Part shown: piece by piece, positions 1 to 21,585 of the stretch
Numbering within the stretch: position 1 is the stretch's first letter
Layout: every line of letters starts with the position of its first letter
DNA from: Neocallimastix sp. 'constans'
Lineage: Eukaryota
Assembly (NCBI GenBank): GCA_050613775.1
Contig: JBODTK010000016.1
Span: 1,302,001 to 1,366,000 of the forward strand
Reading direction: 5' to 3'
DNA length: 64,000 nt
Position numbers and translations under genes: made by a program
Notes under the pieces: model-generated
Told to the model about the DNA's origin: nothing
What the model saw: only the letters and a program-made list of their open reading frames with translations
Databases searched by the model: none

Positions 1-319
1 TTTAATTTTTAATTTTTTTTTATTTTAGTGTTTATTTCTATATTTATTATTATTCTGTCCCGAACCTCAACATTATTGGTAAAGAATAAATTAATAACCT
101 TTATTTTATTATTAATAATTCTTTACTAAATTGTACTTTCCTATATTCTTGATAACCTAAACTTAATAATAAAATTTAATTTATTTTGATATAAATTAAT
201 TTTAACTTGTAAATAATGTAAATAAATTTTAATTAATTACTTTATTGTTATATTATTAAATATATGTATATATTAAAATACAATTGTAAATATTAAAATT
301 ATACTTTTAAGATACTAAA

Positions 320-760
320 TTATTAAAACTATTAATTAAATATTATTATAAAAATTATTATAAAATTATTAAAACTATTAATTAAATATTATTATAAAAA
401 TTATTATAAAATTATTAAAATTATTAATTAAATATTATTATAAAAATTATTATAAAATTATTAAAATTATTAATTAAATATTATTATAAAAATTATTATA
501 AAATTATTAAAATAATTAATTAAATATTATTATAAAAAATATTATAAAATTATTAAAATTATTAAAATTATTAATTAAATATTATTCTAAAAATTATTAT
601 AAATTATTAATATTATAAAATTATTAAAATTATTAAATATTATTATAAAAATTTATTTATTATAACTATTAAATATTATTATAAAATTATTAAGATTATT
701 AATTAAATTTATTATTAAAAATTATTAAAAATTTTTACTTATTATAAAAATTATTATTTA
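320..760. repeat. AT-only minisatellite (~45-bp degenerate units)
   Basis: Repeated AATTAAATATTATTATAAAAATTATTATAAAATTATTAAAA(C/A)TATT. Confidence 0.8.
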
Positions 761-1281
761 AATATTATCAAATTTATTAATTAAATATTATAAAAATTTT
801 ATTTTATTTTGAAAATAATTACAAGTATTATTTAAAATAATTAAAGATTATTAAATTTATTATATTAATCTTTAAAAACAATTTATTTAACTTAAAAATA
901 TCAAAGAAAATAGTAAAAACTATTTTCTATATATTTATTTTATAATTATTTTTAATTAAATTGTATTTGAATATTATATTATTATATTTATAAAAATTAA
1001 AACAAAAATGAATTATTGATATAAAATTAATTCAATAATTCTATAAAATTACTTAAATTATAAACAAATAATTATACTTTAAATTCATAAAAAAATATAA
1101 ATATTGTAAATATTTCTTAAAAATTAAATATGTGTACTTTAAATAATAAAATTTTATATTAATAAATAATAAACACTTTTTAATAAAAAAAAATTTTTCT
1201 TTGTTAAAATCAAAGCAGGGTAATACCCGTCCCCCCTGCTTGATTTTAAATCAATAAGAATTACCCCTAGTCTACCATTAT

Positions 1282-2611
1282 TGATAAGAATGTACTTAAT
1301 AATGCATTCTTAATTAAATCTACGATTTATTTTGTTAAAAAGTAAACAGATTGAATTTAACGAGGAATCAGGTTGATATATCTATATAATATAACTATAT
1401 AGATATAAGTAAATTACTAAAATAAAAGAGTTATAAAGTTAAATTTGTTAATTTAACACTTAATTAAAACTAATAATTGGTTTGATATGATAAAAATTTT
1501 TATTTATTAATAAAAATATATAGTTATATTATAATAGGTTAACTATAACCTTACAAAGAACAAAAAGATAAATTTGAATTTTCTTTTTATACTTTGTAGG
1601 TTTGAGAATATTGATAATAATAATATAAAGTTGATAATAATAATATTTAGTATAAGAATATGTTTAATATAAATAAATTATATTTTTTAATCTAATATAT
1701 TAGCTAATATATAAAATATAATATTAAATTTAAATATTTAATATAGTAATTAATAATTAATAATTAATTAAATCAATATAACATAAATTAATACATAAAC
1801 ATTAATTTATGAATCAAGGATGACATGACCAAATGATTCATGTTAATAAATATTTTATTTATTAATAATATTTAAGTTTAATATGATATCATTAGAATCA
1901 GTAGGCCTAAGCTGGTCCTAAGATGATCAAATAACTTATAATATTATAAAATAAATAAAATTTAAAGAATAATTAATGAATTATAAATTTTTATTAATTA
2001 TTTTGTTTTTAATAATTTTAATTGAAATTAATTGAAATTGAAATTTAATTCAGTTGTAATTTCAACATATTTCTAATACATTATGTGTACATTATTATTT
2101 TTGTACTTTAATAAATTTTTAAATCCAAAGATCAAAAATTAAATCAAAAATTATATTAAACTTTATATTTTTATATTAAATCTTATATTAATAGTAATAT
2201 TTTTATATATTTAAAACTTATATTAGCAATATTAATAATAAGTCTTATTTTTTTTTTTTATATTAATAATGAAAATTTGTATTAATAATATTTTTATATA
2301 TTGATGATTAAAAATTTATATATTATATTTTAACCTTTATTATAAAATTTTATATCGAAATGTTTTATTTTATATTGAAAAATATTTTATTTTATTAAAA
2401 ACATTTATATTAGAATAGTATTTTTATTTTTATTTGAATATTTTAACAGATTGTAATAAAAATTATAGCCAATCAAATAAATTCATAAATAAAAATAATA
2501 AATAAATATCAAAAAAAAATAAATTTAATAAAATAAATAAATAAAATAAATAAATAAAAAAAATTTGTGTTTCTTTACTTTATTTTTATTTAATTCTCTA
2601 AAACCTTAACA
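1282..2611 (+). repeat. E1 5' LTR (~590 bp, interrupted by a 735-bp insertion plus TSD)
   Basis: 1282-1332 and 2073-2611 align with the 3' LTR with only a handful of differences; TG...CA ends. Confidence 0.93.
1333..2067. mobile_element. Solo LTR of another family nested in the E1 5' LTR
   Basis: Ends TGTTAAAA...TTTCAACA; flanked by TATTT at 1328-1332 and 2068-2072; the 3' LTR has the empty site with a single TATTT. Confidence 0.88.
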
Positions 2612-2617
2612 TTTATA

Positions 2618-2637
2618 TGGTGGAGATATCGGGGAAT
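2618..2637 (+). promoter_or_regulatory. Primer binding site, probably tRNA-Ala
   Basis: TGGTGGAGATATCGGGGAAT 6 nt after the LTR end; complementary to a tRNA 3' end ...CCCCGAUAUCUCCACCA, resembling eukaryotic tRNA-Ala ends. Confidence 0.8.
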
Positions 2638-2823
2638 TAAATAGAAATAATAGTAAATAACATAGATTTTTTTTTATTTTTTTTTTTTTTATTTTATATT
2701 GATAAACAAGTAAGTCGTTAATCCTTTGATTAACCTATGGCGCTTGTTTGATATATATATATAAAAAAAAAAAAAAATTTTTTAAATAAGTAAAATTAAG
2801 ATTCTAAAAAAAAAGATTGTAAA

Positions 2824-3109
2824 TTATAACAAGGAGCGGATAGAGCTCATATACAGTGTATTTCCAGAAAACAACAAAATATCTATTATTCATAGTAGGT
2901 TATTGGATAATAGTTATTTTGGGAATTAATTGGAAAGTAGACGAAGGTATTTGGTTACCGACCCGGTAATAATAGTTCAGCCTTCAACGTTTCAACACAC
3001 GAAGGTGCGGGTACTTTCCAAGCACTGGCGAATAAGGAGCTTACGTCACCGAAGGCGTAAGATTGTTTTTTTTTATATTTTTTTTTATTTTTCTTTGTGC
3101 TAGTTATAA
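2824..3109 (+). ncRNA. Structured cis-acting leader RNA element, copy 1 (E1); function unknown
   Basis: Shares three identical blocks and covarying stems with 10576-10861. Confidence 0.7.
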
Positions 3110-3633
3110 GGCACTTTATTATATAAAGTATCAGACTTTGGCTAACTTCGCCATTTAAATTTTTTTTATTTTTTTTTTATTACTGATACTTTATTTGTTT
3201 AATAATTCCTGTAAAAGAATCTTAATTTACTTTGAAAATATTGTGTTTTTAGTTAATTTTTATTAGTTAATAAAAATATTATTGAATACTTTTAAAATTT
3301 TTTTTATTCCGTACATAGATTATCGGATTAAGTTTATCCTATATAGTAATTGGGCTAGTGGGCTCTGAACTGCTATATTTTATATTGAATATAGTAATCG
3401 TGGCACACGCGTGGCATGACACCATAGGTAAGCTGCACGTCAGACAGTGTGTACTATCAGATTGTACGACAATAAAGATTATTTTTTGTGTTTAATAATT
3501 ATAATTAATTAATTTTATTAGCTATAACAATACAATATTTATTGTTTAAAAAGAAAAATTTTTGAAAGGTGAAAATAATAAATAAAACTTTGCTTCTAAA
3601 TTTATTACTACAAATATACTAAATTACAAAATT

Positions 3634-3947
3634 CAAGTGGTCGATAAAGATTTCGAGCTTGAAAAATATTCTATTAAGTTGTCGATAAAGATTTCGAACT
3701 TAAAATTATTCTATTAAGTTGTCGATAAAGATTTCGAACTTAAAAATTATTCTATTGAGTTGTCGATAAAGATTTCGAACTTAAAAATTATTCTATTGAG
3801 TTGTCGATAAAGATTTCGAACTTAAAAATTATTCCATTGAGTTGTCGATAAAGATTTCGAACTTAAAAATTATTCTTAATAAAGTAGTCGAAAAGAACCT
3901 CGTGCTTTATAATTTCTACTAAGTTGTCGATAAGGATTTCGAGCTTA
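3634..3947 (+). repeat. Tandem array of 8 x ~41-bp hairpin-forming units in the E1 leader
   Basis: Unit about AAGTTGTCGATAAAGATTTCGAACTTAAAAATTATTCTATT; starts near 3635, 3676, 3716, 3757, 3798, 3839, 3882, 3921. Confidence 0.95.
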
Positions 3948-4121
3948 TATCTACTAAAGAAAGCAAATAAAATTATTATTTTCAAAAGTTACTAAAATAT
4001 ATTGTTTTAAAAATTGATTCGATATTAAATTACCTATTAAATTATATTTTTAAAGTTGTATTTCCAAATTTATTTTTATTTAATCACCTCATTAATATAC
4101 AACAAGAAATATTTAAACAAA

Positions 4122-5024
4122 ATGTCCAAGGAAACAACTTTGAGCTTTAAAGAATTGAAAAAAGAATTAAGAGATATTGTGAAACTTAGCAAGGACAATT
4201 TAGATATTAAGTCCTGGGCTACTGAATTAAAACTTTGGATCAAGATACAAGGTATTACAGATCCAGAAACAATATTTAATGCTTGTTTACTTACCAGCTC
4301 TGGTGAAGTACAACGCGTTATTGAAGATTTGGGAGAAGATAGTGATGATGAAAGTGATGATTCATCAGATGAAGAAGAAGATGATGATGAAAAAGAAAAT
4401 GTTGATGATGATATTAAATTTCCTTCTCTTGGAAAAATTATTTCAAGTCTTGAAAATTTTTACGGTATTAAAGAAGACCAAAATTTACTTCTTAAAGAAC
4501 TTCGTGCAATGCGAATTAAAAGAAACGAAAAGATTAAAGACTTTAATGTAAGATATAGAACTTTGTACACTAAACTTGATAAAAAGAGAAGAAAGCGCAT
4601 TGGTGTACTAGATTATATTGATTCTATTCAAAATAATTATGAAGCCTGGAAGAAATTATCCCTTAAAGATGATATAAGTATGGATAAAGCTTTCAAAATT
4701 GCCGAGAAAGTAGATAGACTTTCTGTAAAGAACAATAATACCTATAATATTAATTCCCAACATAATCAAAATAATCAAAACAGTACTACTTCAAGACTTT
4801 ATTCTAAAAGAAGAAACGAAAATTTCCAATCAAGTCAAACAAATAATAAACCGAAACCTCAAGATATTATAGAAGAATCAACCCAGAAAATGAGAAATTT
4901 ATCTGTTAAAACTTGCTTCTTCTGTAAGGAAGAAGGTCATTACTCATACTATTGCCCTCAATTAAATAAGATTATGGAAAAAAATAAAAAAGAAATATAT
5001 TCCAAAAAGTCTTTAAACTTCTAA
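4122..5024 (+). CDS. gag: E1 Gag with CCHC zinc knuckle
   Basis: First ATG at 4122 (MSKETT); C-terminal CFFCKEEGHYSYYC (CX2CX4HX4C); intact ORF. Confidence 0.9.
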   Translation: MSKETTLSFKELKKELRDIVKLSKDNLDIKSWATELKLWIKIQGITDPETIFNACLLTSSGEVQRVIEDLGEDSDDESDDSSDEEEDDDEKENVDDDIKFPSLGKIISSLENFYGIKEDQNLLLKELRAMRIKRNEKIKDFNVRYRTLYTKLDKKRRKRIGVLDYIDSIQNNYEAWKKLSLKDDISMDKAFKIAEKVDRLSVKNNNTYNINSQHNQNNQNSTTSRLYSKRRNENFQSSQTNNKPKPQDIIEESTQKMRNLSVKTCFFCKEEGHYSYYCPQLNKIMEKNKKEIYSKKSLNF

Positions 5025-5064
5025 ATGGGAGCAGAAGCACTCCCAATGACAAAACAATAGCTTC
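5012..5064 (+). promoter_or_regulatory. -1 programmed ribosomal frameshift signal (slippery heptamer plus H-type pseudoknot)
   Basis: T TTA AAC at 5012-5018 in gag frame; 7-nt spacer; S1 TGGGAG/CTCCCA (5026-5031/5040-5045); S2 GAAGC/GCTTC (5034-5038/5060-5064); -1 frame open into ORF 5207-5800. Confidence 0.85.
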
Positions 5065-8000
5065 ATTAAATAATTTACAAAATAATACTTTTACTAAGAA
5101 TACTCCAATTGATAATAATTCCTTTAATGAAGAATCTGAAGAATCTGATTTTAGTGACACAACTGAAAGTGAGGATGATATCATTATAAATGCTATAAAA
5201 AGAAAAATGAATGATAATAACAGCGAAAAAGAAGAAAATAATTCCAAGAAAGTACATAAAAGTTTAAAAGATAATCCACGTCCTTTCGCAACTCCTGCTT
5301 TAAGAAAGAAGAAAGAAAATGAGCTACATAATAAACCCAATAAAGTTTATAAAAATCAAATACTTCCTTCAATTTTAACTCAACCAAATATAAACAAAGA
5401 AAAACAAAAAGAAAAGGAATTAAGAAATATGACAAGAGTAAGAGAAAGTAAAGAAGAAAACAACAATTATTCATCAAAAGGAAAGGAAAAAGTTGAATCT
5501 GAAGATATACGTGCAATCGATAATGAAATAGAAGATCTAGAAATGAATAAAGATAATCATCAAAATAAAACTAATACTTTGGAAAAATTAATTTCAATAA
5601 AAACTAAAGAAACTAATAATGAAAATACTCAGTTAGTAAAAAGGAATATCAAAATGATGAATAATAAAGAACCTTACAATATTATGGATGATTTAAATAA
5701 TCTTAAATCCAGTATTACGATAGGTCAACTCTTGAATGCATGTCCGAAAATTCGTTCACAATTAATTCAAGGTTTAAAGTTAGAAAAATCTAAAAAATAA
5801 TTGGAACTGTAGACAATGTAATAGCACGAACTTTATTAGTAAATAACTATGATCATAGCTACATAAGTAAAAGTAATGAAGTAGCCGAAGAAGACTTAGC
5901 AATGGTTGATGCAAGTGTTGACGGAGTACTAGGAAAACTTTTAATTGATTCTTGTAGTAACCTAAGCATCGTTACTAAGCAGTATTTTGATAAATTACCT
6001 GGTGAATATGAAACAGTTGGAAAAAGTCGTGGAAGAATCCAACTTGCAACACAAGATGAAGAATACTCGGAAGGAATTATTGTTTGATTACCAGTAAAAA
6101 TTAATAATTATGAATTTAATGCGGACTTTAGAATTATTGAGAAAGAAGACTCTTTTTATGATATGTTATTAAACTTTAAAACTCAAATCGATCATTGTTT
6201 ATTTATTCATCCGACCTTAAACAGTTTATGTAAACTTTTGTCAGAAAGTGAATACAAAGAAATAGCTAAAATAAATAATCAATATTATGAGGAAGAAAGT
6301 ATAATTTGCACTATTAGAAAAGTTAAAGAAACGAATAATGAAAAGGAAATTATAAAGGAATTAACTCCAACGGAATTTATTGAGAGTGATGAATTTTTAA
6401 GTACCTTAAATAAAGATTATAAAGAACAAATTATTAAAATTCTCAAAGAAATGATTGACATAGTTGCCACTTCAACAGAAGAACTAACTCCTTCTAAACT
6501 TTCACCACATAAGATCCGTTTAAAAGCAAATGCAAAGCCAGTAAAATTAAGAAGTTATAGGTTAACTAAATTAAAATCAGACATCTTAAAAGAAGAACTT
6601 ACAAAGCTTATTAAGAAAGGATTGATAGAACCATCCTGTTCAGAATGGTCATCTCCAGTAGTACTTATTCTAAAACACAATGGAAAGTGGCGCTTGTGCA
6701 TTGACTACCGAAAAGTCAATGATATGACAGAAAAAGATTCTTATTCAGTTCCATATATAGATGAAATTTTTGATAGTCTCGGAGGAGCTAAAATATTTAC
6801 AACTCTTGATTTATTTTCGGGTTTTCACCAAATCTTAATGGATGAAGAAAGCGTTGAAGTAACCACTTTCACTACTAAGTTTGGAAATTATCAATTTAAG
6901 GTTATGCCTTTTGGACTTACTGGAGCTCCCTCAACCTTCCAAAGAGAAATGAATAAAATTTTATTCCCTTTTATTGGTGAATTTGTTTATGTATTTATTG
7001 ATGATGTTTTGATCTATTCAAAAAGTATCGAAGAACATTTAATTCATATTAAACAAGTATTAGAAGTATTTAAAGAAAACAAGTTAAAAATTAATATTGA
7101 AAAGTGCCATTTTCTTCAAACTGAAGTTGATGTATTAGGTCACAAACTTACTACTAAAGGATTAAGTCCCATGGAAAGTAAAATAACAGCTATTAAGAAG
7201 TGGGAAGCCCCTTCATCACTTCATGAATTAAGATCATTTCTAGGAGCAGTAGGATATTATCGTGACTTTATTCCTAAATATGCTCAAATTACCTCACCTT
7301 TATGTAAATTATTGAAAAAGAATACTAAATATGAATGGAATAAAGAACAACAAGAAAGCTTTGAACTCCTAAGAGAAAAATTAATCAATGCACCTATTCT
7401 AAAATTTCCGTCATTTGACAAACCTTTTATCATTAGAACTGATGCTTCGTATAATGGAATTGGTGGAGTTCTTTTACAAAAAGAAGAAGAAACCGGTAAG
7501 GAGCATCCAATACATTTTATAAGTAGAAGTTTGAAGAAAGCTGAAAAGAATTATGGTATCACAGATTTGGAAGGAACCGCTTTGTTTTACTGTATGACTA
7601 AATTTAAATCTTATATTGAAGGAAATCCATTACCTACAACTATTTACACAGATCATAAACCATTAGTTGGTTTATTTAAGAATAAAGAACCTTTGAATGC
7701 AAGGCAAACAAGATGGTGTCTAACCGCTAGTATGCTTGGAATTAATATAAAATATGAATCAGGCAAAAAGAATGTGTTAGCTGATGCTCTTTCAAGAATG
7801 AAAAGTAAGGAAGAGAGAAAGATATTATTAACAAAAATTACTAATGGAAATAATGAAGAATTATTATCTAAAGTTATAAAGGAATTTATTAATGAAAAGT
7901 TTACTGTTATTGATGGTGAAGATTACTTTATCGACAATGGAAATTATAGAAAATTAATAACGGACGAAAATGAAAGGTTTAAATTAATTTTAGAAGCTCA

Positions 8001-9023
8001 TAATATTGGCCACGAAGGATATTATAAAACATATCAAAGACTTAAGAAAAACTTTTATTGGAATCATATGATTAAAGATATCAAAAGAATTGTTAGTAAT
8101 TGTGAAAAATGCCAGTTAAATCGTCCTCAACCATATCCAGAACCAACCGAAAACCATCCAACTAAAGTAGAGGGTCCCTTTGTGCATTTAGGATTAGATA
8201 TTATAGGACCGTTACCAAAAACAAGAAATAATAATCAATATATTATAGTAACTGTTGATTACTTTACCAAATGGGTTGAAGCCGAACCCACTGAAAACAT
8301 AACTTCCTCTGATATAATTAAATTTTTAATAAACGTTTTTGCAAGACATGGTGTACCTCAAGTTATTACTACTGATAATGGAGTCCAATTCACTTCTGAT
8401 ATGACTAAAATCTTTCTTGATCTTTATGATGTATATGTTAAATTTGTAGCTACTTACCACCCTGAATCAAATGGCCTTACTGAAAATCGAAATAAAGAAA
8501 TTGGAAAATTACTCCGTTTTTTATAAAGGAAAAATCAAGATTGGGATGAAGTTTTACCTTCTGCTTTATGGACACTTCGAACTACCAAAAATACAGCTAC
8601 TGGACATTCTAGTTTTGAATTAGTATATGGAAGAGAAGACCAACTGCCTTATGATATAGCCATAAGAACAATTGAAAATGCAGATAAATCATATGATGAA
8701 ATTTTAATGGAAAAATTTGTTCGTCATTATCAATGGACTAGAGAAGCATGCGAAAATGTGAAGAATGCTAACAAGTATTGGGCAACAAGACGAGAAGAAC
8801 AAATAAGTATGAAAAAGGAAAAGAATTAAAGGCTGGTGATCTTGTTCTTGTTAGAAACTTTAGCCGCACTAAGCTAGAACCATATTACAATGGACCATTT
8901 AAAATTTTAAAAATTCAATTCAACACGGCAACCCTAATCGATCAGAAGACTGGAAAGCAACTCGATAGGAATGTTCACTTTAAAAATTTAGTAAAGTTTA
9001 ACTCCGCTTACAGAGAAGCTTGA
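5012..9023 (+). pseudogene. pol: E1 pol (linker, protease, RT, RNase H, integrase with GPY/F), disrupted
   Basis: LLIDSCS protease; RT motifs WRLCIDYRKVN, MPFGL, FIDD; RNase H TDAS; integrase H-H-C-C and D,D,E; GPFKI. Frame change near 5795 and near 8820; in-frame stops at 6085 and 8524. Confidence 0.93.
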
Positions 9024-9041
9024 GTCTTCGTCGGGGCATCT

Positions 9042-9632
9042 TGATAAGAATGTACTAAATAATGCATTCTTAATTAAATCTACGATTTATTTCTAATACA
9101 TTATGTGTACATTATTATTTTTGTACTTTAATAAATTTTTAAATCCAAAGATCAAAAATTAAATCAAAAATTATATTAAACTTTATATTTTTATATTAAA
9201 TCTTATATTAATAGTAATATTTTTATATATTTAAAACTTATATTAGCAATATTAATAATAAGTCTTATTTTTTTTTTTTATATTAATAATGAAAATTTGT
9301 ATTAATAATATTTTTATATATTGATGATTAAAAATTTATATATTATATTTTAACTTTTATTATAAAATTTTATATCGAAATGTTTTATTTTATATTGAAA
9401 AATATTTTATTTTATTAAAAACCTTTATATTAGAATAGTATTTTTATTTTTATTTGAATATTTTAACAGATTGTAATAAAAATTATAGCCAATCAAATAA
9501 ATTCATAAATAAAAATAATAAATAAATATCAAAAAAAAAATAAATTTAATAAAATAAATAAATAAAATAAATAAATAAATAAAATTTGTGTTTCTTTACT
9601 TTATTTTTATTTAATTCTCTAAAACCTTAACA
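9042..9632 (+). repeat. E1 3' LTR (591 bp)
   Basis: Direct repeat of the 5' LTR without the nested insertion. Confidence 0.95.
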
Positions 9633-10575
9633 TTATGAGTTTCGTTACACTAGATAAGAGATTTGTTAAGATTAGAAAACCCTTTCTTATTTAACCTTAT
9701 TTTCATAAAAAAATATAAATAAGGCTCTTAAGTTCTCTTTGAGAAATCAAGAGTTATTATTATAAAAACATAGTTATAATAGTAACAATTTTATATTTAT
9801 TTTTAACTTTAATAAATTAATAAAATATTTTATTCAAAAAACATATTTTAAAATCAAATTTATACAAATAATTCTTCTTTTGCTTTTCGTGTTATTATTA
9901 TAATTAATTTTATAATAAACTCTATAGGTAAAAAAAAAATTTTATTTTATTTTATTTTCTCAACTTAATGAATTAGTCGTTAAGTTGTAGTTAATAATTC
10001 TATTTTGAGTTAGTTCTTAATAGAATTATTACAATAATAACTCTTATTAGATTAGTTTAGGGTTAGATAAAATGTGAAAAATTTTTAGAATAGTGTAACA
10101 TTGGAAATTTTATTAGTGAATTAGTCTATTGAAATTATATATATTAGAATACAATAATAATATATATAGCTAGAGTGGCGCAAAAAAAAATTTTTTTATT
10201 AGCAATTTTGATTGAAAAAAAAAAAAAATTATATTAAAAAAAAATTATATTAAAACAAAAAAAAAAAAAAAAAAATTTTTTTAATAGTTAATAATAGAAT
10301 AATGAATTAATATTTTAGAATAGTTTTAGAGTAATTATAATAATTTAAAATAATTAAAATAATTTTAGAATAAATATAATAATATATAATAATATATAAT
10401 AGCTTTAGAATAATAATAAATTAGAATTATTTTAATAATTTAGAATTAATAGTATAGAATAATTTTAGTTAATATAATTAAGAATAGGAACAATAATTTA
10501 AAATAATTAAAAAAAAAATAATAATAAATAAATAAAGAAATAAACAAAAACATTAAAAAAAAAAAAATAAAAAAC

Positions 10576-10861
10576 AACAAACTGAGAAGGTAATAATACC
10601 TTCATATATAGAGTTAGCCATCTAACTGGGGATGGTGAGTACATTTTTAGGTAGTAATAAAGGAAAGGTCTCCTTTTCCTATACAGTAGCGGTTTGTACT
10701 GTACGGAAATGCTGTATTTAATGTGAAAGTATAGGTTATCCGAATGTAGCTCTAGCGAATAAGGAACTCTTGGTCACCGAAGGCCTCGAGGTTCTTCAAT
10801 ATTATGTATTGAAGTAAAATTATATAGTTTTAATTTTAATAATGGGTTTTAACAGTTTGTT
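10576..10861 (+). ncRNA. Structured cis-acting leader RNA element, copy 2 (E2); function unknown
   Basis: Same block order and stem topology as 2824-3109 with different stem sequences. Confidence 0.7.
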
Positions 10862-11332
10862 TATCACAAACAAAATTGGTTATAGCAGTCATGTTTCTTT
10901 TATGCTTGATTATATAAAACTGCTATGGAAAACATAAAATATTTTTTTATGTTTTAATGGATCACTTTTGCCGGTTTTTGAATGTTGTAAGACATAAGAA
11001 AGTGATATTGAGTTTTAATTAAAATAATACTAAATATTGTATTTATGCAGAAGTTTATAATAAAGGATAAGTTTATAATAATATTTTGTTAATCATTTTA
11101 ATTTAATTTCCAAGTACGTAGTTGACCGTTACTGGTAGGCTGTAACATTAGACCTACACCTAAGCCCTTTGGTTGATAAACCAAATGAACGGTAACATGG
11201 AAAGGAAGAAATTAAAGTGTATTCTATAAATTATTTATTAATTAAAATCCTTATTATAATTCTTAATTTTGTGTAATAAGAATGTCCATTTTGTTAACTC
11301 TATCATATTTTATCTATACATAAGGCACAAAA

Positions 11333-14300
11333 ATGGATTTCAATAGTAATAAACAAGCAATTTCTTCAAGTGAAGTTAATAATTCCTATATCCATGATGA
11401 AAATGCATTCAAACATATTACTGCAATCGCTGACTTCATTCCTGCTTTCTTTCCTCCAAAAGGAAAATGAAAGCAATAAACTAAATATCTTAGAAATTTT
11501 AATTCAAAGTGAAGATTTCTTTAAGGAGCATCCAAATTCTTTTCAAAAGGACGAACTAAAAAGTTCTTTTGTTATTAATAAACTTACTGGTACCGCTAGA
11601 AAATGGGGTCTCTCTCTTTTAACTGATGGTACTCTAAAGAACCTTAAATTTAGTAAGTTTAAGAAGCTCTTACTGGATAACTTTGATATTGGGAATGAAA
11701 GGAAGCAAAAATATGTCATCATGGAAAAGTTGTGGAAATTGAAACAACTTCAATTAGGAAATGTTGCTGAATATACTATTGAATTTCGGAGATTGGCTGG
11801 ACGTTTAGGATGGCCCGACGAAGTTTTAATTGATATCATCGGTAAGGGTCTACTTGACAAAGTCCGCGAAGAGTTTGATAAACTCAAAAAGCCATTTACT
11901 CTTTTTGAAGCTACCAACATTATTATTGGAATTGATAAGAGGTGTTTTTTGGAAAGTCGTTTACGCCACAAACAAAAAAATAAATTTAATAGAAAAATGT
12001 CGTTTCATAGGAAGAGAAACGATTTATTAAAATCAGAAAAGAATTCTAAACATTCTCATTTTAGAAAAAATAAGTCTAAAAACGACATACTTTCAGCAAA
12101 TTACAACCCGAATATTAAAACAACAATCACAACTACCTTCTACCTTGATATTAATGGAAGAAATATTAAGGCAAATCTATTAATTGATTCGGGTTCCGCC
12201 AGAAGTTTTATTTGTAAAATCTTCGCAAATTCTAATAAATTACCTGTGTTAGGATTTAATTCTCAAATCAGCATCCAACTTCCTAATGGGAAAAGTATGA
12301 ATATCAGACAAACTACTAAGCCCCTTAAATTAAAATTTATGGATCATAAGGAAACTTTTGAATTCTGCATTGTTAATCTATTTCTTCAGGGCATTAATGG
12401 TATTCTTGGAAGGGATTGGTTATCCGTTCACAATCCTTTTATCGACTATAAAAATAATAGAATCTACTTCCTTGGTAGATACTGTGGCTCACATTGCCCA
12501 TCCTCCAGAAGTAATAAGTTTTTTAATCAAAATAAAAATATTACTGCTTCAATGTTGGATAATTCAGAAGAAGATTCAGTATTACCAAATTCGGCTTTTG
12601 ATACAGATATCTCAGATTCTGATTTATGTGCTGCAATGATTGATTCAGAAGAAACAAGCACTGACGTTCAGGGAAAAGAAGAGATTATTAATAAACACTA
12701 TTCGGATCTTAAAATAGTATATGAAAAGAAACAAGCTGAGAACTTACCACCCCATCGTGACTATGATATTGCTATTGAGCTTATTCCTCGTGGACAACTC
12801 TTTTTGGTCCAATATACTCTCTTACTGTACAAGAAATGAAAGCTTTAAAGGATTATATTAAGGAAAATTTAAAAAAGAAATTCATTAGAAAGTCAAAATC
12901 ACCAGCAGGTGCTCCTATATTATTTGTAATGAAACGCAATGGTATCCTTAGACTCTGTGTAGATTATCGCCGATTAAATGCTATCACAATCCGTAATAGC
13001 TACCCAATTCCAAGAATAAATGACTTGATTGAATCCTTTCAAGGAGCAAAGATATTTACTCGTCTTGACCTTAGGTCTGCTTATAACCTAATCAGAGTTA
13101 AAGAAGGTCACGAATATCTTACTGCTTTTAGAATCCCTTTAGGACATTTCGAATATCTCGTTATGCCTTTTATACTTCGAAATGCCCCTTAGGTTTTTCA
13201 ACGTTTTGTACAAGATATCTTCAGTGATATCATTGGTTCTTTCGTGTAAGTCTATCTGGACGACATCATTATTTACTCTAACCACGAAAAAGAACATATT
13301 AAACATGTTAGGATTGTTCTTCAACTTCTCATCAACAATGGATTATATGCTAAATTAGAGAAATGTGACTTCCATGTTACTAAAACCACTTTCTTAGGCT
13401 TCACTGTTTCTGTAGATGGTCTCACTATGGATAAGGATAAGGTAAAAACTGTTCTGGATTGGCCTATTCCAAAGAATCAAAAGGAATTACAAAGTTTTCT
13501 AGGCTTATGTAATTTCTATCGAAAGTTTATCTACAATTTTGCCAAAAATATGGAACCTCTTCGTCGACTTTTAAGGAAAAATACTACATTTAATTGGGAT
13601 GAATCAGCATTTGAAGCTTTTAATAAATTGAAAGAATCTTTTAAAGCTGATGAAGTGCTCATTTTTCCTAATCCAGAGAAAGAATTCATCGTTGAAACAG
13701 ATGCTAGCGACTTTGCTGTCGGTTGCATACTTTCTCAGGTTAGTGATACTGATAACTTACTGCATCCCGTAGCCTTCCATTCTAGATCCCTCAATAAAGC
13801 AGAAGTCAATTATACTATATATGATAAAGAACTTCTTGCTATAATTACTGCGTTTGAAACTTGGAGGCATCATTTAGAAGGCGCAAAATTTCCCGTTCAA
13901 GTAATAACAGACCACAAGAACTTATTGTATTTTAAGAAACCCCAACATTTAATTCAAAAACAAATTCGTTGGAGTCTCTTTTTATCAAAGTTTGACTATA
14001 AGATTGCATTCAGATCAGGCGCTAAAAGTGGCAAACCAGATGCTCTTTCAAGACGCCCAGATTTTAAATCTGACTCTTCATCTGAATCACAACCTATAAT
14101 TAACAATAATGCTTTCTGCTGTGCTATAAATGACAATATTAGTAGTCTTATTGAAGCAAAGAAAACTGATAATTATTGTAAAAATAACCTTTTAAAAATA
14201 AGGGATAAGTCAAACAACGCCAAAAGTTCTTTATTTTCCTTCGTCGATGGCGTGCTTCACTTTCAAAAGCGTATTATTATCCCTTCCAGTCTCAGGGCTA

Positions 14301-15360
14301 GACTTTTAAAGTCTTTCCATGATGCACCCACTAGTGGCCATCAGGGGGTAGATAGGACCTTTGAAAAACTCAGAAGGAACTACTGGTGGCCTAATATGAA
14401 AAAAGATATTTCAAATTATGTGACTTCTTGTGATGTTTGTTGAGAAATAAAATCCATCGTCATAAACCTTATGGTAAACTAATACCACTTCCTACTCCTA
14501 CAAAACCCTGGGAAGTTATTGACGTCGATTTTATTGTTTCATTGCCTTCTTCACAAGATTGCATTTGTATCATGGTTGTTTCTGATCATTTAACCAAAAT
14601 GATTCATTTAGTACCCTGCTCCGATGTTCCCTCTGACGATTTAACTGCCAAGCTCTTACTTTTCCAAGTCTTTAAGTATCATGGTTTTCCTAAAGTGATT
14701 GTGTCTGATCATGGTTCCCAATTCTCTTCTCAATTTTGGACTTCGTTGTGCGATGCTATTCGTGCTAAACTAAGACTTGCTACTGCTCACCACCAACAAT
14801 CAAATGGTCAGGTTGAACGGGCTAATGCTGTAATAGAACAATATCTTCGCTGCTATTGTTCTTCTGCTCAAAACGAATGGTGTTTCTACCTCCCTTTATG
14901 TGAAATGTCCTACAACAACTTCATTCACAAATCAATATCTCAAACTCCTTTTCATGCTAACTATGGATTTGACCCAAATTGTGTTATTGATTCACCACCG
15001 ATTCTGCTAAAAGATAGTGACTCTGTTCTTACTAGGGATTGGTCTTCACATTTCAATGCCCTTCGTCAACATTTAGTTAAAGCCAAAGAAGATTTTAAGA
15101 AATATGCTGACAATAAAAAATCTGTAGGACCTGACTTTAAGGTAAATGATTTGGTTATGCTTAGATGATACTACTTTACGAATGAGCATTCTAGAAAATT
15201 ATCCACTCAATAACTTGGACCTTTTAAAATCATCGAGAAAAGGGAAAGAATGAATTACCATTTGGAACTTCCAGAGAACTTACATCTCCATCCTGTATTT
15301 CATATCTCACAATTGGAACCATATACTAAAAGAAATGAAGACTTAATGGAAACATCATAA
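11333..15360 (+). pseudogene. E2 gag-pol polyprotein pseudogene (Gag, protease, RT, RNase H, integrase)
   Basis: LLIDSGS protease; [43 protein letters not shown]...CDVC, SDHGSQF, GQVER; GPFKI and HPVFHISQLEPY. Gag and protease in one frame. Frameshifts near 11460, 12805, 14440; stops at 13190, 13247, 15166, 15211. Confidence 0.92.
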
Positions 15361-15469
15361 TTAAACAGAGCAATGTAAGAATCTATAATTATTTGCTAAC
15401 AAATAATTATATTTTCTTAGTTAAGTTATCTCTTTTCTGTGTCTCTACACCATGCACCTCCATTACAAT

Positions 15470-15780
15470 TATAAAGGTCTTATGAATCAGAAACATATTA
15501 CAAGAATTATTTAATTTCAATAAGCCTATTAAAATTTACACTGACAATATAGCTAGCAAAACCAACATTAAGAAAGACGAAATCAACACTATATTAAAAT
15601 ATATCCATATTAAATTTTTCTTTAATAAAAACAGCATCAATGAAAGTAAAATAACTTTAGATTATATTGAGTCAAAGGAAATGCTAGCTGATAATATTCT
15701 AACAAAACATAAAAATAGTAAAAATATAGTTAACTTCGTGAACAAAGTTTTTATAAATGAAAACTTGTTTGAGAGGGAAG
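15470..15780 (+). mobile_element. Ty1/Copia remnant: RNase H C-terminus plus polypurine tract; LTR begins at 15781
   Basis: Frame from 15483 reads *IRNILQELFNFNKPIKIYTDNIAS...KYIHIKFFF...LDYIESKEMLADNILTK (Copia RNase H pattern); PPT GAGAGGGAAG 15771-15780 directly followed by TGTT. Confidence 0.82.
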
Positions 15781-17361
15781 TGTTAAAATATGTAAATATT
15801 TAATAAAATAAATCATAAAATATTTCATATAATAAAATATATAAAATATATAAAATATTTGTATATAAATAATATAAATGTATATACATAAATCAATATA
15901 ATATCATATGACGTCATACGATAAATATATATAATTAAAATTATAAATTTTTATTCATGTTCATTTTAAATATAACTTTACATTAATAAATTAACTTTTT
16001 AGTATAAATAAATAAGCAATAATATATACAATTACATTTGTGTGTTTCTACCCATAGTCGTTAAAAATAATGATAATAATAATAATAAATAATAAATAAA
16101 TAATAATGAATAATAAATATTATATAACAAATAATAATAATAATAATATTAATTTTAATATCAATAATGTCCAGTGTTTATGTTTTTTTATTTTTTTATT
16201 TTTATTTTTTTTCTGTTGTTTTTATAAAATTTAATGATACTTTTATCCATATCTTTATTTTCTTTTGTTCATTTTATAATTTATGTATATTTTATAGTTA
16301 ATTCAATTATTAAGAGTTTTATTTTATATTTATTTTTCAATTCAATATATTATGAATAATATAAAAATCTACAATAAATTTAATATTTTATAATTTAATA
16401 TCAATATGAATATTTTTCAAATATACTTTATATATGAAAATATTTATTAATAGATTTTGTTCTTTTTATTAATTATTTCTTTTATTTATATTTAATAAAT
16501 CTTTTTTTTATTTATTTTTCTTTTTTAAAAAAAAAAATAAAAATTAATAAATATATAATATTAAAAAAAAAAAAAGAGGATCATATATAAAAAGATTTTA
16601 TATAAAGTGGTTTTGTTCTTTTTTAAAAAATATATATTATTATTATTTTTTTATTTATTTATTTATTTTATTTTTTTCTTTTAATCAAGATTTATTTTAG
16701 TAAGTAGTATACATATATATTAATAATCAAATTTAAATAATATAAAACTTTTTTTTTTTATTAAATCAATATTATTTAAAAATAATTAAAAAAAAAAAAT
16801 AGTACAAAAAAAAAAAAACATTTTAAAAGAACCAAAAAGTATTTTTTTTTTTTTACTATATTTTTTCTCTACTTAATATATATAAATAGACAAATATTCT
16901 TTCTTCTATTTACATATATATATAAAAATCTATTTATTTATGTAATATTAATTATTTTTTTTTAATTATTTTTTTTTATTTTTAATTTTATTTTTTTTTT
17001 TTAATATATTGAAAATATTATTAAATAAACAGAATCTTTTTTAAAACTATAAAGACAACAAGAATCTTTTTTTTTTTTTTTCTATTTATAAAAAAGGAAA
17101 TAATAATAAAAATAATAATAATAATAATTGAATAAATAATTTGTTGTTATATTCCTGATTATTTTATAAACTTAAACAGTAAACAAATAGCAAATTAAGC
17201 AATAAATCAAAAGAAAAAAAAAATAAAAAATTTGATTTTTTTAAATATCTTTTTTTTTTTTTTTTTTTTTTGATATTCTTTTTTAATAATATAATAATAT
17301 CTTACTTTTGTTTAAAAAACATATCAGTATTCTTTAATTTAAAATAAATAAAATAATAAAG

Positions 17362-21585
<4,224 letters not shown>

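Follow-up and report, generated by a model that had tools for sequence, protein, structure and literature searches.

The leaders of Ty3/Gypsy retrotransposons from gut fungi carry what sequence comparison suggests is a real, selected family of RNA structures, and this family, here called motif 1, is apparently undescribed. Two copies lie in neighbouring elements, E1 and E2, of the window (the whole 64-kb stretch of DNA that was analysed), and a third lies on a metagenome contig, L009. Each copy has the sense orientation and precedes a gag gene by 360-1012 nt, the gag being a different one in every case. We propose, with a probability of about 0.45, that motif 1 is a cis-acting leader module that binds a host factor through which the full-length RNA is exported, stabilised or translated. 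The first-pass annotation of this DNA had claimed a covarying RNA structure common to distant Gypsy lineages, and both the third copy and the compensatory changes described below uphold that claim.

The host elements

The window consists of eukaryotic DNA of very high AT content and contains cullin, Sel1, TTI1 and Ras-family genes. E1, a Ty3/Gypsy element at 1282-9632, lies directly upstream of E2 and has an LTR pair bounded by TG..CA, a target duplication, a primer site and the domain order RT-RNaseH-integrase (Table 1). Its two LTRs are 99.3% identical over 547 bp, and the insert within the 5' LTR is probably the solo LTR of another element. In E2 the same Ty3/Gypsy domain order was found, in a coding region decayed by frameshifts and stops. 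An LTR pair, a 5' LTR, a primer site and a self-priming complement were all looked for in E2 and not found, and the 64-kb window contains no tRNA genes. The difference in priming strategy suggested earlier does not emerge from these data: a TGG-type primer site is present at 2618 in E1, but none was found for E2. The 3' end of E2 is cut off by a decayed frame (15432-15791) that resembles the terminal RNase H part of a Copia-type element, and a very stable hairpin (1204-1249, z -6.4) lies just upstream of the E1 insertion site.

For the proteins of both elements the best solved relative is Ty3 Gag-Pol. The RT-RNaseH regions of E1 and E2 are 33% identical. The Gag of E1 is unalignable with those of E2 (best E 0.58) and L009 (E 20), while the Gags of E2 and L009 share 30% identity. 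Among the 69 matches to the E1 Gag, most of which lack an organism name, the named relatives all come from anaerobic gut fungi; the L009 Gag is 72% identical to an Orpinomyces protein, the sole named organism among its 51 matches.

Table 1. Coordinates of the elements, motif 1 and motif 2 (positions in the window unless L009 is named)
Feature	Position	Strand	Remarks
E1 target duplication	1278-1281 and 9633-9636		TTAT
E1 5' LTR	1282..2611	+	TG..CA
Insert within E1 5' LTR	1333-2067		735 bp, TG..CA, TATTT duplication
E1 primer-binding-site-like sequence	2618..2635	+	begins TGG
E1 gag and pol	4122..8526	+	ATG at 4122; RT, RNaseH, integrase
E1 3' LTR	9042..9632	+	
E2 gag-pol region	11333..15360	+	Ty3 capsid, protease, RT, RNaseH, integrase
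Motif 1, E1 copy, whole module	2824..3109	+	
Closing stem, E1	2824-2830/3103-3109		7 pairs
Hairpin A, E1	2834..2848 (2834-2837/2845-2848)	+	GAGC/GCTC
Joining strand AUANA, E1	2849..2853	+	
Stem B, E1	2854-2859/3022-3027	+	encloses variable domain 2860-3021
Invariant purine-rich strand, E1	3028..3038	+	GCGAAUAAGGA
Hairpin C, E1	3040..3064	+	invariant GUC-ACCGAA-GGC
Hairpin C loop ACCGAA	3048-3053 (E1), 10776-10781 (E2)		
U-rich strand ahead of closing stem, E1	3063..3095	+	
Motif 1, E2 copy	10576..10861	+	
Closing stem, E2	10576-10584/10853-10861		9 pairs
Hairpin A, E2	10586-10592/10597-10603		GAAGGTA/TACCTTC, 7 pairs
Stem B, E2	10609-10615/10748-10754		
Motif 2, E2	11112..11204	+	predicted three-way junction, GAUA tetraloop
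Motif 2, L009	184-276 and 866-958 of L009		two copies flanking motif 1

Conserved blocks and predicted fold of motif 1

Three blocks had been reported as shared by the leaders of E1 and E2, and all three were recovered: TCATATA (2847 and 10602), GCGAATAAGGA (3028 and 10755) and GTCACCGAAGGC (3045 and 10773). The latter two have no other occurrence on either strand of the 64 kb. At least one 11-mer with at least 5 G/C was shared by 5 of 500 pairs of shuffled leaders, and the real pair has two blocks of this class (at least 5 G/C) in the same order. At the RNA level, UCAUAUA, GCGAAUAAGGA and GUC-ACCGAA-GGC are common to E1 and E2 inside one predicted multi-helix fold. The joining strand reads AUAUA in E1 and E2 and AUAAA in L009, and its fourth letter becomes C in the E1 relative described below. 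In hairpin C, the pair next to the invariant part is C-G, G-C and A-U across the three copies, and a bulged purine near the base can be read from the sequences. In E2 and L009 the U-rich strand is of the AUAUAGUUUU type. It is followed by the closing stem's 3' arm, which reads YAGTT in all three copies (3101-3105, 10852-10857 and, in L009, 671-676), an arrangement resembling a hidden 3' splice site.

When compared with shuffled sequences, E1 and E2 folded with z-scores of -4.17 and -4.49, none of 200 shuffles equalling either, and L009 with a modest -1.45. The shared fold lies 0 (E2), 0.3 (L009) and 2.8 (E1) kcal/mol above the minimum free energy (MFE) structure. Its helices have pair probabilities of 0.92-0.98 in E2; in E1, stem B has a mean pair probability of 0.16 and is absent from the unconstrained MFE structure. 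Hairpin C alone is not significant over the three sequences (91 of 500 shuffles). In all three copies folding favours the plus over the minus strand by 18-25 kcal/mol, and on the opposite strand the U-G pair that is invariant in hairpin C would be a mismatch. A similar fold (z -3.45) results with DNA parameters, so that folding alone cannot tell RNA from single-stranded DNA. It had also been claimed that every helix differs in sequence between copies and still pairs. The pairing is retained, but stem B does not differ throughout, three of its six pairs being identical in all three copies.

A third copy and searches for others

Metagenome contigs were scanned with a pattern of the motif 1 3' core only. 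One of the eight loci, L009, is a true copy, and the other seven are coding or chance matches. The search pattern did not cover hairpin A, UCAUAAA, stem B or the closing stem, yet L009 has all of them. Here stem B is re-paired as CAGAGC/GCUCUG around a domain of ~168 nt. The copy as a whole has new compensatory pairs, and 360 nt separate it from the Gag downstream. Numerous JGI-sourced proteins are related to the E1 and L009 Gags, yet the metagenome scan yielded a single true copy; either the collections differ, or many members of the family lack the exact core.

Models built from the three copies detected no further copy in the 64-kb window. Among viral contigs, none of the four loci matching the core pattern was true, nor was either of the two matching a relaxed core; two patterns of a second motif (motif 2, below) gave no locus and one false locus, respectively, and the relaxed-core and motif 2 loci fell inside ORFs. 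Protein searches of the viral contigs yielded nothing apart from one distant retroelement, which lacks the motif. The single locus in prokaryote genomes was not a true copy, and phages and plasmids gave no match. Closest of the rejected loci was a core-like match in L005/L006/L008 (L005 4313-4412; 31.9 bits, 5 of 6 stem-B-like pairs), which lies inside the end of an integrase-like ORF of a virus-like contig, has T-T at an invariant pair and lacks hairpin A. We judged it a chance match because the sequence is coding and the invariant pair is broken.

Selection for pairing in an exchangeable middle domain

Public sequence runs were compared with E1 over 2788-3066, the substitutions coming from three contig runs; for the RNA library X19, the contigs possibly originate from DNA. 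A relative of E1, ~94% identical, differs by 15 substitution rows and a 1-nt gap. We scored 14 substitutions, which represent essentially one relative or lineage pooled over the three runs; row 2885, an alternative placement of the adjacent gap, was left out and the gap itself was not scored. The scoring fold was constrained only by the four helices of the first-pass annotation. On this fold, 8 of the 14 changes form four compensatory pairs (2863/2924, 2864/2923, 2879/2917 and 2886/2910), two turn G-U into A-U, and four fall at unpaired positions; no pair is broken. Placed at random, the changes are expected to give 0.14-0.43 compensatory and 5.7 broken pairs, and both observed counts were matched in 0 of 100,000 permutations. 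The same test on the unconstrained MFE structure of E1 is weaker, with two compensatory pairs, one broken pair and 21-138 matches per 100,000. No change is listed in 2981-3066.

The middle of the module behaves differently in other contigs. In all three contig runs there are contigs that pass from the E1 5' flank through 126-131 other letters into the 3' core, joints which, at low likeness, can stem from other organisms or repeats. In run X12, summed depth, which is no measure of copy number, is 27,210-28,648 over 3028-3047 versus 4,281 over the middle domain, a ~6-fold difference. We read this as a sign that other elements may have the motif 1 core together with a middle domain of their own. 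At the level of sequence, these comparisons show a middle domain that is exchangeable yet itself selected for pairing.

Other features of the leaders

Motif 2, likewise undescribed, is present in the leaders of E2 and L009 and was not found in E1. Its invariant parts are GUAGGC..GACCUACA, AGC and the GAUA tetraloop. Four of its pairs are changed on both sides, and 16 of 500 shuffles score as high, in a test of three rows, two of which come from the same contig and are nearly identical. Motif 2 has no Rfam match. A third shared stem-loop, with CTTTTGCCGGTT, occurs just downstream of motif 1 at ~10960-11005 in E2 and ~680-722 in L009. The E1 leader downstream of motif 1 contains a GC-rich hairpin cluster unlike motif 2 (3345-3480, z -1.0) and 7.7 tandem copies of a 41-nt unit with two TCGA words each (3635-3947). 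Just 3' of the E1 primer site lies a hairpin (2703-2750, z -3.0) with a 4-codon ORF and a donor-like GTAAGT word, the AGTCGTTAA of which recurs upstream of E2 near 9975.

The leaders are at least 1.0-1.7 kb long. That of E1 (2618-4121) has 2 AUGs, versus 18.6 ± 3.4 in shuffled sequences, both of which open ORFs of 3-4 codons, and that of L009 (1-1035) has none, versus 8.9 ± 2.3 expected. The E2 leader is not depleted, with 19 AUGs versus 22.9 expected. Five intergenic controls were without AUG depletion, and a sixth, the low-complexity stretch 1-1200, has 4 versus 9.2. The depletion in E1 and L009 suggests that the module is likely retained in a mature, scanned RNA, while the lack of depletion in E2 suggests that the three leaders are not translated alike.

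Comparison with described RNA families

The first-pass annotation did not recognise motif 1 as a described family, and a search of Rfam 15 agrees, giving no credible match for any copy. Over 1-20000 nothing falls on motif 1 at E<=10; the best scores in short windows touching a copy are 16.1, 16.0 and 15.9 bits (gathering thresholds 70, 74 and 50), and nothing falls on the L009 copy. No description of motif 1 was found in the open-licence full texts of PubMed Central and bioRxiv; supplementary tables might list it.

Three self-cleaving ribozymes were compared with motif 1 in detail. The hammerhead core consists of CUGANGA and GAAA at a three-way junction; CUGANGA is absent from the plus strand of all three copies, and neither strand has an Rfam match. 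HDV-like ribozymes form a nested double pseudoknot in which GG (P1.1) comes before P4, and J4/2 is followed by the 3' strand of P2. The GCGAAU of motif 1, followed by a helix, is reminiscent of the J4/2 strand. In all three copies, AUANA, not GG, precedes stem B, a P1/P2 partner is missing, and there is no Rfam match. The hairpin ribozyme has an unpaired N-GUC opposite NGAA (loop A), plus a loop B consensus. The GUC..GAA of motif 1 resembles loop A; unlike in loop A, the base before GUC is Watson-Crick paired (C-G, G-C or A-U), and again Rfam gives no match. Motif 1 is like self-cleaving ribozymes in combining an invariant core with a variable peripheral helix, and differs from them in its position inside the leader of an LTR element. 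According to the excerpt of PMC6765202, ribozymes are known in non-LTR elements, Penelope-like elements and retrozymes, where they free the ends of the element, and none of those it covers lies inside the leader of an autonomous LTR element.

Two further systems belong, like motif 1, to the structured RNAs of retroelements. The ENE binds poly(A), according to the excerpt of PMC12501189, through a U-rich internal loop set between G-C pairs; in plant and fungal LTR retrotransposons it stabilises the RNA and raises mobility, the ENE of Evade lying in the 3' UTR (PMC12501189, same excerpt). Motif 1 is likewise a structured RNA of LTR retrotransposons, but each copy has one U-rich strand, opposite which the shared fold places no second strand of this kind, and an ENE assignment was rejected. 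The ENE clamps poly(A) by its U-rich loop, whereas the invariant letters of motif 1 are purine-rich. The leader of the pararetroviruses CaMV and RTBV is, in the excerpt of PMC5902531, a large closed stem-loop that provides a shunt configuration and a packaging signal, and shares with motif 1 a closed leader structure with an exposed purine-rich sequence. Shunting requires, according to the same excerpt, a short ORF that ends just before the base of the stem (PMC5902531). Unlike that leader, motif 1 has no short ORF at its stem base, and its core is invariant across unrelated capsid proteins; the leaders of E1 and L009 are nearly AUG-free. The stop nearest to the stem base is 72 nt away in E1 and 265 nt in E2, with none in L009, and a pararetroviral shunt was rejected. 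Readings as group II domain 5, T-box, kink-turn or Pol III element were likewise rejected, since the triad G lacks conservation, tandem G-A pairs are absent, and there are runs of T within the closed module.

The closest functional parallel may be found in RNA export elements. The CTE bears its loops on one stem, whereas motif 1 forms a multi-way junction with an exchangeable domain of 126-168 nt and lies in the 5' leader of an element in a fungal host. The CTE (of MPMV and of an NXF1 intron) and the RTE of MusD/IAP are otherwise comparable, as structured cis-acting RNAs of retroelements in which a conserved loop sequence is held by helices and read by a host factor (PMC4338338, in excerpt). 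In the case of MPMV, Nxf1 binds the internal loops of the CTE (PMC4338338, in excerpt). By analogy, our best reading is that motif 1 would work like the CTE or RTE without necessarily belonging to either; no copy has an Rfam match.

Possible functions of motif 1

That the module binds a host factor was already suggested by the first-pass annotation, and it remains the likeliest reading, being consistent with the third copy and with the invariant core across unrelated Gags. According to this model, the shared blocks fold, in the leader of the full-length RNA, into a self-contained module. Through the closing stem and stem B, the ACCGAA loop would meet AUANA and GCGAAUAAGG at a single junction, and the lineage-specific domain would be pushed outwards. 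The junction strands and the loop would then form a binding surface for a host RNA-binding factor, and its binding would allow the RNA to be exported, stabilised or translated. As the Gags are unrelated while the core is letter-identical, the partner would more likely be encoded by the host than be Gag; since RT is 33% conserved, an element-encoded partner is possible as well. The module may have moved between lineages by recombination, or it may predate their split.

It is rather unlikely that motif 1 is instead a signal for packaging, dimerisation or reverse transcription that is recognised by the Gag or RT which the element itself encodes, or by an RNA packaged along with it. Retroviral packaging signals lie between the primer site and gag, as does the module in E1, and an invariant core would permit cross-packaging and the exchange of modules between lineages. 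The 33% identity of the RT-RNaseH regions and the position of E1 directly upstream of E2 would agree with such a signal, as would the binding of coat protein to a purine-rich leader stem-loop sequence in plant pararetroviruses (PMC5902531, in excerpt). Yet the same excerpt reports that the CaMV signal cannot be replaced by that of RTBV, which argues that such signals tend to be lineage-specific, and the motif 1 core is letter-identical in E1 and in E2 and L009, whose Gags cannot be aligned with that of E1. Moreover, the ACCGAA loop is not self-complementary, and the three copies have no GC-rich palindrome in common.

Motif 1 could also be a ribozyme of an undescribed class, in which the junction strands and ACCGAA form the catalytic core, the stem B domain is dispensable, and conditional cleavage either yields a gag-pol mRNA or destroys the RNA. 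Small ribozymes, too, keep their core invariant while their peripheral domain is exchanged freely, as seen here. Ribozymes also occur in other retroelements (PMC6765202, in excerpt). We nevertheless regard this as quite unlikely, as no Rfam ribozyme model reaches E<=10 in any copy and the core features of hammerhead, HDV-like and hairpin ribozymes that were compared above are absent. The self-cleaving RNA proposed in the first-pass annotation would, in addition, fit badly with the leader position, because a cut 3' of the primer site would sever that site from the template.

A role in translation initiation, as an IRES-like landing pad for ribosomes or eIFs or as a shunted stem, appears improbable. 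The length of the leaders would suit such a role, as would the AUG depletion of E1, which is strongest downstream of the module (1 versus 13.2 expected), and the closing stem is followed by AU-rich sequence resembling a shunt landing site (PMC5902531, in excerpt). However, the closing stem has no short ORF terminating at its base, L009 is AUG-free both upstream of and inside the module (0 versus 3.9 and 2.8), for which plain scanning is explanation enough, and E2 has 10 AUGs between the module and gag. For the AUG-depleted leaders of E1 and L009 the IRES suggested earlier is not needed, though one might be at work in E2, where AUGs are not depleted.

The earlier proposal of an alternative pairing leads to another model, in which a ligand-sensing or splicing switch operates, the closing stem hiding a YAG 3' splice site and the UC/GA pairing toggling the junction. 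In its favour, YAG-UU follows the U-rich strand in all three closing stems, and the UC/GA pairs can form in all three copies, extending to 6, 3 and 4 of 5 pairs. The alternative helix has 6 pairs in E1 and 3 in E2 and is interrupted in L009 by a C-A mismatch between two pairs on either side; only the two UC/GA pairs are invariant. The AUG depletion of E1 and L009 speaks against an intron, and the sequences show no 5' splice site at a conserved position. We consider such a switch very improbable. Finally, that motif 1 consists of words shared by chance in AT-rich DNA, or is a functionless copied piece, is hardly credible: the integrase-gene match in L005/L006/L008 (31.9 bits, 5 of 6 stem-B-like pairs) shows how far chance can reach within a very large collection, but L009 has fresh compensatory pairs at the same genomic position, the E1 relative has four compensatory and no broken pairs, and different middles occur between the same flanks.

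Implications

In LTR retrotransposons, a cis-acting RNA signal usually belongs to a single lineage. One may entertain a bolder, and in our view unlikely, possibility, namely that motif 1 is a catalytic or ligand-sensing RNA of an undescribed class, passed as a plug-in cassette between unrelated gut-fungal Gypsy lineages. It would then be the first of its kind inside the leaders of autonomous LTR retrotransposons, with a fixed core, a swapped periphery and further mix-and-match modules around it. Judging by motif 2, leaders of this kind may be assembled from exchangeable RNA modules, of which, for this fungal phylum, we found no description in open-licence PubMed Central and bioRxiv texts. A core that is letter-identical across unrelated Gags points either to a conserved host machine used by fungal retrotransposons, as in the host-factor binding favoured here, or to new RNA chemistry. 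Both would be cheap to test, since three natural copies, a middle that looks dispensable and ~30 invariant letters already define the mutants.
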